Positions 24,011 through 29,836 of a stretch of DNA of 64,000 nucleotides are shown piece by piece. Both the position numbers and the translations under genes were made by a program. The DNA lies in assembly GCF_056746865.1 (NCBI RefSeq), contig NZ_CM163382.1; one strand, 5' to 3'. Within the stretch, counting starts at the first letter, position 1; each line of letters begins with the position of its first letter. The notes below the pieces were generated by a model that worked only from the letters and a program-made list of their open reading frames with translations, was not told the origin of the DNA and made no database searches.

Positions 24011-24075
24011 TGAAAGGAGATCACTCAATAACGGCGTTTTTCAAGGTAGTTGTCGCCTTTTGTAATAAAATTACG

Positions 24076-24897
24076 TTATGCAGCCTCTTTTTCTGGATTC
24101 AGGTAGACTTCTGATATGTAGTCCCAGTTACGTAGATGCTTTCCCCAACGTTCAGGATGCTGTTCGCGTGCCAGCTGGTATACTGCTTTTCTGGCCGCCA
24201 GTATTTTCATATCATTACCTTGATGACGCTCGGCTGGCGTGACGTATTTGATCCCGCTGTGCTTATGTTCAAAGTTGTACCAGTTTACAAAACGGTTTAC
24301 CCATATTCTGGCATCATTAATAGTGCGAAAACCGTTCTCAGGCCACCAGGGACAATATTTGAGAGTCCGGAACAAAGATTCTGAGTAAGGATTATCATTG
24401 CTGACTCTTGGCCGGGAATAAGAACTTAGCACACCAAGCGCATACATTTTCGCCAACAACGTGTAACTGCGCATGGGAGCACCATTATCAGAATGGAGTA
24501 CCAGATTGCTGGATGAACATTTTTCATTCCATATTGCCCGCTGGAGTAGTTCTGCTGCATGTTTTCCAGATTCGCTGGCAAATACCTCTGCAGCAATAAT
24601 CTTGCGACTGTAAATATCGACGATCATATAGAGGTAAAAATGCTGACCTCTGACCCCGGACGGCAAATAGCTGATATCCCAACTCCAGACTTGATTCGGT
24701 GCAACGGCCCTGAGTACATCAGGCCGTTTATACTGACATTCACGGGATCGTTTCTTCAACTGGTTGGCTGATTTCAGTACACGATAAAAGCTTGATTCAG
24801 AAGCAATATAAATACCCCTGTCTGCCAGAGTTGGTACGATCACATTTGGAGGTAAGGATGCAAACTCTGGAGAGTTGCACAACTCCAGTATCCGCAA
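24076..24897 (-). CDS. IS3-family transposase OrfB (copy A)
   Basis: 273-aa DDE integrase-type ORF. Confidence 0.75.
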   Translation of the reverse strand: MRILELCNSPEFASLPPNVIVPTLADRGIYIASESSFYRVLKSANQLKKRSRECQYKRPDVLRAVAPNQVWSWDISYLPSGVRGQHFYLYMIVDIYSRKIIAAEVFASESGKHAAELLQRAIWNEKCSSSNLVLHSDNGAPMRSYTLLAKMYALGVLSSYSRPRVSNDNPYSESLFRTLKYCPWWPENGFRTINDARIWVNRFVNWYNFEHKHSGIKYVTPAERHQGNDMKILAARKAVYQLAREQHPERWGKHLRNWDYISEVYLNPEKEAA

Positions 24898-25100
24898 TCT
24901 TTCCGCTTCTGACAGCTTATTTCGGGGAGATCTGTTTACAGTATCGGATCTTCGGTCCGTGGTGATGACTTTGCCATTAGTCCAGCGCTGAAGTGTCCGA
25001 ACAGAAATACCGATACACCTACAAGCCTGACTTTTCCGGGCGCCGTTGATAACGGCCTCGTGGATAAGAGAAATAATTTTACGCCGCTCCAGGAGAGGGG

Positions 25101-25613
25101 TCAGTCTTCCTCGCTGTTGTCCCAGAGGGCATTGAACTTTTCCCTTAATATAAGCAGGGCAGCTGCTTCCGCCAGAGCTTTATCTTTGCGCTTAAGCTCT
25201 TTCTCCAGTTCTCGTAACTTATTTTTTGCGTCACGCAATGCCCTGTCTGTTCGGATATTTTCCGTCAATTTCTTTTCATGCGCCTGAATTGAGATAGCCC
25301 GCCATTCTTTAACCTGTTCAACAAACAATCCCGTGCGTCGGCAATAATCAGCAAGTTCCATTTCTGACAGCGTAGCCGTCTCAAGAACAACTGAGAATCG
25401 ACGCTCCGGTGTCCAGTCTTCAACATCAACGGAGGTAATCTTTTCATTTTCAGGTAAAAGTCCTTGCTCCACTAACTCACATCTCCATTTTGATACAACT
25501 GAGGCACTGATCTTCAGCTTACGGGCTATCTGACGATGTGACCAGCAGTATGGTGGTAAAAGCCATATCAGTCCTTTCTCTTTGAGCTCACTTGGTATTG
25601 GTTGTCCTGGCAT
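25101..25613 (-). CDS. IS3-family OrfA (copy A)
   Basis: HTH region and leucine-zipper-like C-terminus; ATG start chosen by analogy with copy B. Confidence 0.7.
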   Translation of the reverse strand: MPGQPIPSELKEKGLIWLLPPYCWSHRQIARKLKISASVVSKWRCELVEQGLLPENEKITSVDVEDWTPERRFSVVLETATLSEMELADYCRRTGLFVEQVKEWRAISIQAHEKKLTENIRTDRALRDAKNKLRELEKELKRKDKALAEAAALLILREKFNALWDNSEED

Positions 25614-25741
25614 TGTTATCTCCTTAAAAAATTGAGGCGACAACTATGCTGACACAGGGGGATAACATTTGAACAGATCGCTGAATAACATCGATGGAGA
25701 TCGGTTCGTGTCACTTTCACAGAACCGTTTTTAAATTACCT

Positions 25742-26491
25742 TCACTGATCTCCTTCGGTCAACGGAGATTGTATTTTCCGCATTGATTCTCCTTTAAGTT
25801 CGATCTTGATACTGCCATGAACCAGTCGATCTAGGATGGCATCCGCATGTGTGGAGTCTCCGATCATTTTGTACCAGTTTTCCACCGGCAACTGGCTCAC
25901 TACGATGATTGAGCCTCGTTGGTACATCAGATCCACTATTTCCAGCAGGTCGCTACGCTGTTCTGATGAGAGAGGTTCCAGCCCCCAGTCATCCAGAAGC
26001 AGCAGATCGCTATTATTCAGCCTGGTCAAAAGTTTGCTGTATCTTCCATCAGCATGCCCCTGATAGCACTGTTCCATCAGCGCTTTAAGGCGATAATAGT
26101 AGACCTTGTATCCCTGTCGGCAGGCATTATGACCAAGTGCACATGCCAGGAACGTTTTACCGCTGCCGGTGGCCCCGGTCAGTAAAATATTTTGTTTCAG
26201 GGTTAACCAGTTTCCCTGACTGAGTGAACGGATGAGGGCCCTGTCCAGCCCTCTATTGTTACGATAATCCAGCTTTGATAACTCAGCATTAAGTCTGAAC
26301 CGTGCATGTTTGATCAGACGCTCTGCCTTCCTGTTTTCACGGCAGGTTAGTTCTTCTGCTGTCAGTAATGACAGGCGTTCTTCGAAGCCCAGCTCCTGGT
26401 ATGTGCCCGGCTGAGCAAGTTGCTTTTTAAGCGCATCACGGAAGCCGGTGAGTTTAAGTGCGGTCAGTTGTTCGTAAAGATGATTCATCAT
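25742..26491 (-). CDS. istB: IS21-family helper ATPase IstB
   Basis: 249 aa; Walker A GATGSGKTFLA and Walker B LLLLDDWG. Confidence 0.8.
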   Translation of the reverse strand: MMNHLYEQLTALKLTGFRDALKKQLAQPGTYQELGFEERLSLLTAEELTCRENRKAERLIKHARFRLNAELSKLDYRNNRGLDRALIRSLSQGNWLTLKQNILLTGATGSGKTFLACALGHNACRQGYKVYYYRLKALMEQCYQGHADGRYSKLLTRLNNSDLLLLDDWGLEPLSSEQRSDLLEIVDLMYQRGSIIVVSQLPVENWYKMIGDSTHADAILDRLVHGSIKIELKGESMRKIQSPLTEGDQ

Positions 26492-28044: not shown

Positions 28045-28233
28045 AGGTATCCTTTACCGGAATGGCAAAAGATACAGATCAACACACCTGTGAAGTTCCA
28101 ATAACATTGATGGAGATCACTGAATAACAAAATGAGTCAAAAGTGATCTCCATCGATGTTATTCAGCGATCTGTTCAAATGTTATCCCCCTGTGTCAGCA
28201 TAGTTGTCGCCTCAATTTTTTAAGGAGATAACA

Positions 28234-28746
28234 ATGCCAGGACAACCAATACCAAGTGAGCTCAAAGAGAAAGGACTGATATGGCTTTTACCACCATACT
28301 GCTGGTCACATCGTCAGATAGCCCGTAAGCTGAAGATCAGTGCCTCAGTTGTATCAAAATGGAGATGTGAGTTAGTGGAGCAAGGACTTTTACCTGAAAA
28401 TGAAAAGATTACCTCCGTTGATGTTGAAGACTGGACACCGGAGCGTCGATTCTCAGTTGTTCTTGAGACGGCTACGCTGTCAGAAATGGAACTTGCTGAT
28501 TATTGCCGACGCACGGGATTGTTTGTTGAACAGGTTAAAGAATGGCGGGCTATCTCAATTCAGGCGCATGAAAAGAAATTGACGGAAAATATCCGAACAG
28601 ACAGGGCATTGCGTGACGCAAAAAATAAGTTACGAGAACTGGAGAAAGAGCTTAAGCGCAAAGATAAAGCTCTGGCGGAAGCAGCTGCCCTGCTTATATT
28701 AAGGGAAAAGTTCAATGCCCTCTGGGACAACAGCGAGGAAGACTGA
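28234..28746 (+). CDS. IS3-family OrfA (copy B)
   Basis: ATG at 28234 preceded by AAGGAG; the track ORF 28204-28746 begins at an upstream TTG. Confidence 0.7.
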   Translation: MPGQPIPSELKEKGLIWLLPPYCWSHRQIARKLKISASVVSKWRCELVEQGLLPENEKITSVDVEDWTPERRFSVVLETATLSEMELADYCRRTGLFVEQVKEWRAISIQAHEKKLTENIRTDRALRDAKNKLRELEKELKRKDKALAEAAALLILREKFNALWDNSEED

Positions 28747-28949
28747 CCCCTCTCCTGGAGCGGCGTAAAATTATTTCTCTTATCCACGAGGCCGTTATCA
28801 ACGGCGCCCGGAAAAGTCAGGCTTGTAGGTGTATCGGTATTTCTGTTCGGACACTTCAGCGCTGGACTAATGGCAAAGTCATCACCACGGACCGAAGATC
28901 CGATACTGTAAACAGATCTCCCCGAAATAAGCTGTCAGAAGCGGAAAGA

Positions 28950-29771
28950 TTGCGGATACTGGAGTTGTGCAACTCTCCAGAGTTTGCATCCTTACCTCCA
29001 AATGTGATCGTACCAACTCTGGCAGACAGGGGTATTTATATTGCTTCTGAATCAAGCTTTTATCGTGTACTGAAATCAGCCAACCAGTTGAAGAAACGAT
29101 CCCGTGAATGTCAGTATAAACGGCCTGATGTACTCAGGGCCGTTGCACCGAATCAAGTCTGGAGTTGGGATATCAGCTATTTGCCGTCCGGGGTCAGAGG
29201 TCAGCATTTTTACCTCTATATGATCGTCGATATTTACAGTCGCAAGATTATTGCTGCAGAGGTATTTGCCAGCGAATCTGGAAAACATGCAGCAGAACTA
29301 CTCCAGCGGGCAATATGGAATGAAAAATGTTCATCCAGCAATCTGGTACTCCATTCTGATAATGGTGCTCCCATGCGCAGTTACACGTTGTTGGCGAAAA
29401 TGTATGCGCTTGGTGTGCTAAGTTCTTATTCCCGGCCAAGAGTCAGCAATGATAATCCTTACTCAGAATCTTTGTTCCGGACTCTCAAATATTGTCCCTG
29501 GTGGCCTGAGAACGGTTTTCGCACTATTAATGATGCCAGAATATGGGTAAACCGTTTTGTAAACTGGTACAACTTTGAACATAAGCACAGCGGGATCAAA
29601 TACGTCACGCCAGCCGAGCGTCATCAAGGTAATGATATGAAAATACTGGCGGCCAGAAAAGCAGTATACCAGCTGGCACGCGAACAGCATCCTGAACGTT
29701 GGGGAAAGCATCTACGTAACTGGGACTACATATCAGAAGTCTACCTGAATCCAGAAAAAGAGGCTGCATAA
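28950..29771 (+). CDS. IS3-family transposase OrfB (copy B)
   Basis: 273 aa, identical to copy A. Confidence 0.75.
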   Translation: MRILELCNSPEFASLPPNVIVPTLADRGIYIASESSFYRVLKSANQLKKRSRECQYKRPDVLRAVAPNQVWSWDISYLPSGVRGQHFYLYMIVDIYSRKIIAAEVFASESGKHAAELLQRAIWNEKCSSSNLVLHSDNGAPMRSYTLLAKMYALGVLSSYSRPRVSNDNPYSESLFRTLKYCPWWPENGFRTINDARIWVNRFVNWYNFEHKHSGIKYVTPAERHQGNDMKILAARKAVYQLAREQHPERWGKHLRNWDYISEVYLNPEKEAA

Positions 29772-29836
29772 CGTAATTTTATTACAAAAGGCGACAACTA
29801 CCTTGAAAAACGCCGTTATTGAGTGATCTCCTTTCA

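Follow-up and report, generated by a model that had tools for sequence, protein, structure and literature searches.

Within the window, the 64,000-nucleotide stretch of contig NZ_CM163382.1 (assembly GCF_056746865.1) analysed here, two inverted copies of one insertion sequence enclose the genes of another. This arrangement raises the questions of which element is nested in which, how the two arms came to be identical, and whether the whole can move.

Anatomy of the palindrome

A repeat search of the window returned an inverted pair at 23999-25702 and 28145-29848, with arms of 1704 nt that were 100% complementary and 2442 nt between them. Arms of this length and complementarity cannot have arisen by chance, and the full identity disposes of the possibility, raised by the first-pass annotation, that they might differ at the nucleotide level. 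That annotation had described a pair of identical, inverted IS3-family copies with an IS21-family element between them, a description borne out by the inverted pair and by the profile matches given below. Its limits (24011-29836, with arms of 1651 bp) captured a real repeat and fell short of its full extent by 12 bp on each outer side and by 41 bp on each inner side.

The palindrome of 5.85 kb is a single ISEc12 (IS21 family), both terminal repeat arrays of which hold a nested, intact ISEc17 (IS3 family). As a unit it spans 23999..29848 (5850 bp) and is an ISEc12 derivative with two left-end-type arms, an ISEc17 lying in each. We put the probability of the complete explanation, namely a doubly nested ISEc12, an istB-side arm copied in situ, arms that have recombined since, and an ISEc17 that targets the ends, at roughly 0.75.

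The ISEc12 core and its ends

The core (25703..28144, minus strand), which is the invertible segment, contains istB, istA and the inner left-end repeats. In profile searches, IstA (26503-28044, minus strand) scored 310.5 bits with NF033546 (cut-off 160), while IstB (25742-26491, minus strand) reached 270 bits with NF038214 (cut-off 200). Both carry the RefSeq name ISEc12, and the gene order, an IstA DDE transposase followed by an IstB AAA+ helper ATPase, is that of the IS21 family. The anatomy was based on the native ISEc12 ends read at locus L001 and on motif maps of 25 loci. The L001 copy has the termini TGCG...CGCA and the repeat units GGAGATCACTCAATAAC, CGAGATCGGGTAATAAC and ACAGATCGCTGAATAAC at 23-bp spacing, that is, IS21-type TG...CA ends with multiple direct repeats. 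The same spacing of IS21-family end repeats was described in the study of IS5376 (PMC10122671). The window element shares with native ISEc12, IS21 and IS5376 an istA and istB core, TG...CA termini and multiple 17-bp repeats at 23-bp spacing per end.

The window element is ISEc12, but a rearranged copy. Compared with native ISEc12, a left-end copy stands in place of its right end, ISEc17 splits both ends, and one 23-bp unit is lost, so that distinct left and right ends are no longer present. The left tip of the unit (23999..24031, plus strand) is the ISEc12 left-end tip with repeat L1, TGCGTATTTTCATGAAAGGAGATCACTCAATAA, identical to the left-end tip of L001; it lies on the istB side, in the place taken in native ISEc12 by a right-end tip of different sequence. 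The right tip (29816..29848, minus strand) is again L1. The outermost 33 bp at each side therefore belong to the ISEc12 left end and not to IS3-family sequence. Assignment of the 33-bp tips to ISEc17 was considered and rejected: thousands of ISEc12 copies have the tips without ISEc17, the 26-bp ISEc17 end is conserved broadly in Proteobacteria, and ISEc17 is found at L2 and R1 units too.

On the istB side, the inner end of the arm (25662..25702, plus strand) consists of ATAAC, the ISEc12 L3 repeat and the 17-bp TAACATCGATGGAGATC, which is common to both ISEc12 ends; arm identity stops exactly there, and the istB-side sequence (GGTTCG...) starts. On the istA side, the corresponding stretch (28145..28185, minus strand), with the 17-bp common sequence, L3 and GTTAT, is native left-end sequence apart from the absence of the 23-bp L2 unit.

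ISEc17 is complete in both arms

ISEc17 is an element of 1630 bp with 26-bp inverted repeats (18/26 positions matching in register) and a 4-bp target duplication. Copy A (24032..25661, minus strand) is the exact mirror image of copy B (28186..29815, plus strand), which reads CCCCCTGTGTCAGC...CTTGAAAAACGCCG and is flanked by TTAT at 28182-28185 and 29816-29819. The open reading frame list places orfA and orfB of copy A at about 25101-25613 and 24076-25098 (both minus strand); in copy B, on the plus strand, orfA lies at 28234-28746 and orfB, in the -1 frame, at about 28749-29771, the two-ORF organisation of the IS3 family. OrfB matched the IS3-family model NF033516 with 169.8 bits (cut-off 160), and rve and rve_3 domains were found. 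RefSeq gives the product as 512 aa, made through a programmed frameshift, and the sequence of copy B is identical to that of an AR13438 copy annotated as intact (WP_370869459.1). The ISEc17 termini, CCCCC...CGCCG, are atypical for the family, whose ends are TG...CA; the left end recurs exactly in 74 loci across Proteobacteria with divergent interiors. Insertions into the native right end (L006, L084) had duplicated GTAA and those into left-end units TTAT/ATAA, lengths within the 3-5 bp of IS3 elements.

The inner IS3-family ends had been thought truncated, lacking 22 bp that are present at copy C, a third copy in the window. Copy C (48108..49824, plus strand) starts with an ISEc12 L1 tip (48108-48141), after which comes a decayed ISEc17 (48142-49824) that is 95-98% identical to copies A and B, has broken ORFs and is oppositely oriented with respect to the tip. 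On its right, copy C is flanked by the terminal repeat array of another IS21-like element. The 34 bp preceding the ISEc17 of copy C are indeed absent from the inner ends of A and B, but the same 34 bp form their outer ends and represent the ISEc12 left-end tip. Copy B at 28186-29815 has 26-bp inverted repeats at both ends, and no truncation exists.

These results bear on the earlier reading of the locus as a composite transposon, in which two end-truncated IS3-family copies flank, and are able to mobilise, an IS21-family element. Inverted identical copies round a central segment superficially resemble Tn5 or Tn10, where two inverted IS copies likewise bracket a centre that can be inverted by arm recombination. 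The palindrome differs from these in that its outermost 33 bp are termini of the inner element, ISEc12; moreover, no duplication flanks it, and nothing indicates that it has transposed as a unit. Each ISEc17 has both of its ends in full, and there is a single chromosomal locus with one ancestral junction. In addition, units bounded at the ISEc17 ends (24032, 29815) at new loci with 4-bp duplications were absent from the 5426 complete genomes. A composite transposon is thus extremely improbable.

Origin of the second arm

The istB-side arm bears left-end-specific ISEc12 sequence (L1 tip and L3 repeat) where a right end is expected. Arm identity begins at the ISEc12 terminus and ends at the close of the 17-bp common sequence. 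The resulting hybrid junction was found 100% identical only in XDL, XH992, AR13438, CM2, EC332 and 23CRST013 (6/5426 complete E. coli genomes), all in one island. This restriction to a single island indicates that a single copying event produced one arm from the other, as the first-pass annotation had suggested in preference to two independent insertions. We infer that the istB-side arm is a copy of the left-end arm (tip, ISEc17 and L3) and not the product of an insertion into a native right end. The copied arm would have joined the core by one exchange within the 17-bp sequence common to both ISEc12 ends, probably once and in situ in the chromosomal island.

Three candidate pathways may account for the copying. 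In the first, the 17-bp inverted repeats mediate a flip, and recombination with another ISEc12::ISEc17 copy comes after it; in the second, a deletion at a microhomology occurs between two copies lying tail to tail; the third is synthesis by fold-back or template switching. No intermediate was found, and the reciprocal junction (right-end tip and 17 bp on the istA side) had no full-length match in the 5426 genomes; a simple reciprocal inversion between two copies is therefore unsupported, and the pathway stands as a deduction from the junctions. Two other routes were rejected on paper: ISEc17-mediated replicative inversion cannot place L3 and the 17-bp sequence beside the istB end, and a simple flip between the ISEc17 copies cannot do so either.

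Another explanation starts from two ISEc17 insertions that arose independently, one into each end of the element (native right end and left end), as found in pF2_407_2_2-1, with later homogenisation by gene conversion that overwrote the right-end tip and added L3. An independent double insertion does exist on a plasmid (L006), right-end insertion is recurrent (L084), conversion tracts are visible between ISEc17 copies, and the arms are not identical to each other in AR13438 and EC332. Conversion would, however, have to cross a 24-bp insertion and a tip that is only about 75% identical, with terminal homology of just 17 bp beyond the insertion and 8 bp beyond the tip, lengths probably below the usual minimum for RecA-dependent exchange. 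Furthermore, the junction is of single origin, and the missing duplication and the loss of flank would be left unexplained. We regard homogenisation as unlikely and favour copying of the left-end arm.

Both arms lack the 23-bp L2 unit. This loss would be the expected product if two ISEc17 copies lying in neighbouring repeat units had recombined, and a tandem precursor of this kind is present in another genome, where locus L097 has ISEc17 in both L1 and L2.

Inversion and recombination of the arms

The core was found in one orientation in the window, CM2, EC332 and 23CRST013 and in the other in AR13438, XDL and GCA_974490215.1, with identical flanks. The existence of both orientations between the same flanks indicates that the arms recombine, and the inversion-prone structure foreseen in the first-pass annotation has both its isomers in nature. 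Homologous recombination of the 1.7-kb arms flips the 2.44-kb core; it also exchanges sequence tracts with copy C and deletes the approximately 20 kb between copies B and C. At alignment columns 146-842, alleles of the copy C type remain next to the asrC flank whichever way the core lies.

Short reads resolve 1.7-kb inverted repeats poorly and core orientation varies between assemblies, as might be seen if two distant ISEc17 copies had been collapsed or mis-joined around an ISEc12. Against this, the same structure and the same unique junctions recur in at least seven complete genomes assembled independently by different laboratories, unique sequence spanning the arm-core boundary contains the hybrid junction, and arm polymorphisms segregate consistently with the flanks. 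The palindrome is not an assembly artefact, a reading that retains negligible probability.

Flanks and mobility

The left flank is a fragment of an IS5-family transposase gene (23477..23998, plus strand). In CS5L, a native ISEc12 left end adjoins the same IS5 fragment at the same tip junction; this junction is ancestral and older than the ISEc17 insertions. The right flank is an asrC remnant (29850..30431, minus strand), and about 90 bp of the asrC 3' end are absent at the junction. Other copies of ISEc12 and of IS21-family elements have 5-bp duplications (PMC10122671; PMC10711316). Duplications of 5-6 bp flanked the 8 other ISEc12 or compound copies, that is, every other one examined, whereas the window copy, with the flanks catgg and tacgc, has no duplication in the 4-8 bp range of IS21 elements. 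All chromosomal occurrences of the unit were at one locus. Movement as a composite unit, which had been proposed earlier, has left no sign in these genomes, and the IS5 tip junction predates the ISEc17 insertions.

Integration of IS5376 requires two contiguous repeats per end (PMC10122671). Since each ISEc17 parts L1 from the inner repeats, the unit can probably no longer move as an ISEc12, a prediction drawn by analogy from in vitro data on a different IS21-family member. The opposite view treats the unit as a functional ISEc12 transposon with two left ends, in which ISEc17 is the cargo and IstA and IstB act on the two L1 tips to move it. IstA yields two-left-end products in vitro (PMC10122671), and here both tips, istA and istB are intact. 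Moreover, small 'tip-ISEc17-tip' structures occur at several loci, each with its own duplication of 5-7 bp, which might indicate that tips with a single repeat are still mobilisable. In the window, however, 1.6 kb of ISEc17 separates L1 from the next repeat, and neither a duplication nor a second locus accompanies the unit. We consider such a transposon very unlikely and an immobile ISEc12 derivative the better reading.

Targeting of ISEc12 end repeats by ISEc17

ISEc17 lies at the 3' edge of a 17-bp ISEc12 terminal repeat, ...GATCNNNNA(A/G)TAA^C, with a 4-bp duplication; its right end faces outwards in both arms of the palindrome. ISEc12 repeat edges flanked ISEc17 on both sides in 10/10 distinct E. 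coli contexts of the exact OrfA, a small sample of 10 places to which loci found by similarity were added. The native right end was hit independently at the same base in pF2_407_2_2-1 and Ec-FL1-1X, and across different genomes ISEc17 occupied L1, L2 and R1 repeat edges in both orientations. In Vibrio, Xenorhabdus and Photorhabdus, relatives are found some 32 nt within TGCGTATT... tips, and a Regiella relative also adjoins an ISEc12-like end. In the sampled contexts, independent insertions thus recur at one position in the terminal repeats of another element, and the only targets of ISEc17 appear to be the transposase-binding repeats of ISEc12-type elements.

OrfA residues 1-52 aligned with IstA residues 1-51 at 42% identity (E = 1e-5, 31 bits), over only some 50 residues of a common fold class. 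The IstA N-terminus was matched only by the 4 OrfAs associated with IS21-type tips and by none of 22 other OrfAs of the clade; a homologue search with the OrfA N-terminus returned near-identical fragments only and so did not bear on homology with IstA. In IS5376, HTH-1 of IstA contacts the repeats (PMC10122671). From this sequence likeness, ISEc17 may recognise the repeats via an N-terminal helix-turn-helix resembling HTH-1 of the ISEc12 IstA. More tentatively, ISEc17 and its Vibrio, Xenorhabdus, Photorhabdus and Regiella relatives might form a lineage of obligate 'parasites' of IS21-family elements, which home to IstA-binding repeats by an IstA-like HTH and disable the host by splitting L1 from L2; we hold this to be possible at best.

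Two other systems resemble this behaviour. IS4321 and IS5075 (IS1111 group, IS110 family) target the 38-bp terminal inverted repeats of Tn21-family transposons and, like ISEc17, take a fixed position in the terminal repeats of another element and split its end. The IS1111 group has a DEDD enzyme and makes no duplication, whereas ISEc17 has a DDE (rve) IS3-family transposase, frameshifted orfAB, 26-bp inverted repeats and a 4-bp duplication. Unlike that of IS4321 and IS5075, its target is a repeated IstA-binding unit of an IS21-family element, present several times per end and used in both orientations. IS1397 and ISKpn1 are specific for REP/PU palindromes and share with ISEc17 IS3-family membership and strict sequence-specific targeting of a short repeated motif; their target is a repetitive extragenic palindrome of the host, and that of ISEc17 is the transposase-binding sites of another mobile element. 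IS1353 in IS1326 may be a further precedent. The searchable literature yielded no paper describing targeted parasitism of IS21 by IS3 elements; for ISEc12, ISEc17, the ISEc17 end sequence and IS3/IS21 targeting it held catalogue mentions only.

Clinical E. coli lineages and plasmids commonly carry ISEc12. It was matched in 1578 of the 5426 complete E. coli genomes, and an ISEc12 interrupts tssM in ST131 (PMC10711316). When insertion sequences nest, a palindrome such as this is a routine and ordinary by-product; it matters mainly to the assembly and typing of these E. coli islands because it creates a deletion hotspot and a segment that flips naturally. Of greater interest is the targeting of ISEc12 ends by ISEc17. 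If confirmed, this targeting would show one insertion sequence disabling another and would provide a simple bacterial system for how a DDE transposase gains strict target specificity, possibly via a DNA-binding domain like that of the 'host' transposase.

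Structure of the palindrome

Self-comparison of the region yielded a sole inverted pair, 23999-25702 and 28145-29848, whose arms are 1704 nt long, 100% complementary and separated by 2442 nt. The first-pass annotation had described two identical inverted IS3-family copies of 1651 bp around an IS21-family centre; the arrangement was confirmed, and the arm size was revised, the identity extending 12 bp further outward and 41 bp further inward on each side. The central segment carries minus-strand genes for IstA (26503-28044) and IstB (25742-26491); both proteins matched IS21-family NCBIfam models well above the cut-off and are named ISEc12 in RefSeq. 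In each arm lies an IS3-family element whose transposase is encoded by two ORFs. The element's two copies, A (left arm) and B (right arm), are identical to a copy annotated in RefSeq as an intact 512-aa transposase with a programmed frameshift, and the element was named ISEc17 from the Shigella sonnei annotation of an identical OrfB. A third ISEc17 copy, copy C, is located at 48142-49824 and is 95-98% identical. Overall, the palindrome is genuine and accounted for, and it is a rather ordinary structure.

Other repeats and mobile elements were also observed in the window. Three copies of another IS3-family element (41700-42960, 45359-46619 and 50674-51933; 99-100% identical to each other) encode an OrfA of 108 aa and an OrfB of 296 aa and are IS629/IS1203-like by size. 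One of them truncates a type I restriction R-subunit gene (39019-41940). As this gene is intact in the near-identical island of E. coli CM2, these insertions are recent in the window's strain. The region 10727-13548 contains an ORF for a group II intron reverse transcriptase/maturase (11359-12600, 326 bits), set between the inverted repeats 10727-10820 and 13455-13548 (94 nt, 88% complementary). An IS66-family element at 18827-22070, with tnpA, tnpB and a 537-aa tnpC, is bounded by the inverted repeats 18910-19116 and 21864-22070 (207 nt, 86% complementary). Two paralogous CptA-like (phosphoethanolamine transferase) ORFs, 56455-57678 and 59408-60910, are about 3.1 kb apart, with an adhesin/OmpW-like gene in between, and have a 300-nt stretch of 92% identity in common.

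Native ends of ISEc12 and limits of ISEc17

A copy with a 5-bp duplication on plasmid NZ_OZ040193 (locus L001) was used as the reference for native ISEc12 ends. Its left end reads inward TGCGTATTTTCATGAAA[GGAGATCACTCAATAAC]TTCCAT[CGAGATCGGGTAATAAC]ATTTGA[ACAGATCGCTGAATAAC]ATCGAT[GGAGATCAC...], with repeat units L1 to L4 of 17 bp each at a spacing of 23 bp, and its right end reads TGCGTATTACCGTGAA[GGAGATCGGTGAGTAAC]ATCGAT[GGAGATCGG...]. The 17-bp string TAACATCGATGGAGATC is common to both ends. In the window, the native left end at 28100-28163 holds an inverted pair of the 17-bp unit just upstream of istA (22 nt, 95% complementary, 20 nt apart), which is a normal feature of ISEc12.

Each arm terminates on its outer side in the 33 bp of the ISEc12 left-end tip, containing L1. 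The 34 bp in front of copy C had been taken for an IS3-family end, by comparison with which the inner ends of copies A and B appeared truncated; because these 34 bp are also the ISEc12 left-end tip, the IS3-family element is complete in both arms, from CCCCCTGTGTCAGC to CTTGAAAAACGCCG. ISEc17 thus occupies 28186-29815 and, mirrored, 24032-25661 (1630 bp), with TTAT on either side. Its inverted repeats are 26 bp long and imperfect, with 18 of the 26 positions matching in register. Its protein and target duplication are those of the IS3 family; atypically for that family, ISEc17 lacks TG...CA termini. The first-pass account stands for the palindrome itself, and its anatomy needs correction.

Origin of the istB-side arm

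On the istB side, native ISEc12 ends in its right-end tip, and the window has a left-end tip, ISEc17 and the left-end-specific unit L3 there. This arm is fused to the istB-side sequence (GGTTCG...) exactly where the shared 17-bp string ends; hence, the arm identity runs from the ISEc12 terminus to the last base common to both ends. Sequence comparison thus supports that the istB-side arm is a copy and not an independent insertion. Copying of one junction to the other side had been proposed earlier from the asymmetry of the inner IS3-family ends, and the proposal is supported here on different grounds. A 66-nt probe for the hybrid junction matched at 100% in only 6 of 5426 complete E. coli genomes (XDL, XH992, AR13438, CM2, EC332 and 23CRST013), all in the same iha/asr island. 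In XH992 (L088), the istB side has the copied arm, comprising ISEc17, L3 and the 17-bp sequence, but the ISEc12 left end is native and uninterrupted and is flanked differently, by an FxLYD-domain gene; this form probably arose by recombination between the palindrome core and another ISEc12 copy.

The unit in the window has no target duplication, being flanked by catgg on one side and tacgc on the other. Duplications of 5-6 bp were found in eight other ISEc12 or compound copies, and a plasmid double insertion (L006), itself flanked by a TATAT duplication, retains the native right-end tip. ISEc12 duplications of that kind have also been reported in the literature (PMC10711316). In E. coli CS5L, a native, uninterrupted ISEc12 left end is joined to the IS5-family fragment at the palindrome's own junction base. 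Hence, the junction between IS5 and the tip predates the ISEc17 insertions, and the palindrome formed in place and not via transposition. On the asrC side, the gene is shortened at its 3' end by only ~90 bp relative to an intact asr operon. The window's ISEc12 is a rearranged copy lacking distinct ends and a duplication, and the palindrome falls outside the definition of a composite transposon, although it had been read as a unit able to move as one.

Copying of the arm requires one exchange within the 17-bp common sequence. The core could flip at the 17-bp inverted repeats and then undergo ordinary recombination with a second ISEc12::ISEc17 in asrC; two tail-to-tail copies could suffer a deletion between their 17-bp direct repeats; or, once the right end had been broken, the 17-bp repeat could prime new synthesis by fold-back or template switching. 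All three routes fit the data. The reciprocal junction expected of a simple exchange was absent in all 5426 genomes. Two independent insertions homogenised by gene conversion would also give matching arms, but this explanation is weaker: the conversion tract must span both a 24-bp insertion and a diverged tip, and the homology past them is only 17 bp for the insertion and 8 bp for the tip.

Core inversion and exchange between copies

Among strains in which the IS5 fragment and asrC form the same two flanks, the IS5 flank lies beside the istB side in the window, CM2 and EC332, and beside the istA side in AR13438 and GCA_974490215.1. Judging from the arrangement in CS5L, the istA-side arrangement is ancestral. 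23CRST013 and XDL have lost ~20 kb by recombination between copies B and C, their right flank being the ECs1377-family gene that comes after copy C. Since both core orientations are found again in this deleted pair, at least two independent flips are needed. The asrC-side arm of AR13438 and EC332 contains ~35 copy-C-type alleles (alignment columns 146-842), which remain with the asrC flank in both isomers. This allele distribution places the inversion crossovers within the arm's inner half and indicates that tracts were exchanged with copy C. The perfect identity of the window's arms reflects either a recent event or homogenisation by such tract exchange.

Insertion of ISEc17 into ISEc12 ends

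A lookup of the exact OrfA sequence in public assemblies gave ten distinct genomic contexts. In 10/10, an ISEc12 repeat-unit edge directly borders ISEc17 at either end, and the insertion invariably follows (A/G)TAA. Several forms were tallied over these contexts and the loci fetched earlier by similarity. Simple insertions into L1, in either orientation and with L2 intact, were found in five loci (L087, L090, L091, L098 and L102). The native right end was hit independently at GTAA^C, GTAA being duplicated, on the plasmid L006 and in the chromosomal locus L084, the latter with a 90%-diverged ISEc17 variant. In L097 (about 2420-5513), ISEc17 is present in both L1 and L2, 23 bp apart. Recombination between such tandem copies would delete a single ISEc17 together with a single repeat unit and could account for the loss of L2 (23 bp) from the window's arms; L097 thus shows the form expected of the precursor for this loss.

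A further form, from which the ISEc12 core is gone, was found in L093-L096 and L099 (around 2420-4115 in each locus). These E. coli chromosomal minis consist of a 33-nt ISEc12 left-end tip, ISEc17 and a 32-nt right-end tip, and they occupy different loci with their own 5-7 bp duplications. One locus is known both as the full compound element (L091) and as the mini in both ISEc17 orientations (L093 and L094). The minis could be remnants, or they could be non-autonomous and mobilised in trans by IstA and IstB.

Two E. coli cases were exceptions, namely copy C at its right flank and a diverged ISEc17 copy in CS5L, and even these adjoin 23-bp-spaced repeats or a TGCGTATTTT tip belonging to another IS21-like element. 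To the right of copy C, 49825-49880 holds two 23-bp-spaced repeats, GATCGATTCGAATGCC and GATCGATTCAGATGCC, resembling the terminal repeats of that other element; the tip in CS5L is TGCGTATTTTCATGGAACATCGATCAGTGATTCG (L083, 2500-2535). Because of this different right flank, copy C looks like a recombinant of ISEc17 copies from two different IS21-family elements. ISEc12 ends make up, by a rough estimate, about one part in ten thousand of a genome. Given this tiny fraction, the distribution of ISEc17 in IS21-type ends is not due to chance.

When one genome per species was scanned, exact matches to the 26-bp left end of ISEc17, CCCCCTGTGTCAGCATAGTTGTCGCC (window 28186-28211), were obtained in 74 loci (L009-L082) of Gamma-, Beta- and Deltaproteobacteria, and the interior diverged immediately past this end. 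The hosts include Endozoicomonas, Nitrosomonas, Desulfuromonadales and Vibrio; the terminus is unusually conserved, given the differing interiors. In the closest subgroup, the Vibrio (two loci), Xenorhabdus and Photorhabdus copies lie ~32 nt inside a TGCGTATT... IS21-type tip, and a Regiella copy adjoins an ISEc12-like left end beside the istA start.

Possible targeting mechanism

ISEc17 OrfA has an additional N-terminal helix-turn-helix. Its residues 1-52 align with residues 1-51 of ISEc12 IstA from the first residue (42% identity, pairwise E = 1e-5), and the putative recognition helices are SASVVSKW and SPSVVSRY, respectively. Only 4 of 26 distinct OrfAs of the wider clade matched the IstA N-terminus (E = 1e-5 to 1e-6), with no match for the other 22. 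The four were from E. coli, Photorhabdus and two Vibrio loci, and their elements all lie within IS21-type tips; the Xenorhabdus locus yielded no intact OrfA. The structure of IstA from IS5376 shows HTH-1 (residues 1-39) recognising a single conserved half within every terminal repeat, with the repeats 23 bp apart (PMC10122671). For integration of IS5376 in vitro, each end must have a pair of contiguous repeats, and products with two left ends arise (PMC10122671). From the likeness of OrfA to IstA, which is short and concerns a common fold type, and from these repeat requirements, ISEc17 may find its target through an IstA-like reader and, by analogy with IS5376, probably disables the ISEc12 end by placing 1.6 kb between L1 and the following repeat.

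Among the closest functional analogues of ISEc17 are IS4321/IS5075, which reportedly target the terminal repeats of the Tn21 family, and IS1397, an IS3-family element said to have strict motif specificity for REP elements. A literature search found no paper describing the targeting of ISEc17. The relationship between ISEc17 and ISEc12 is the part worth following.
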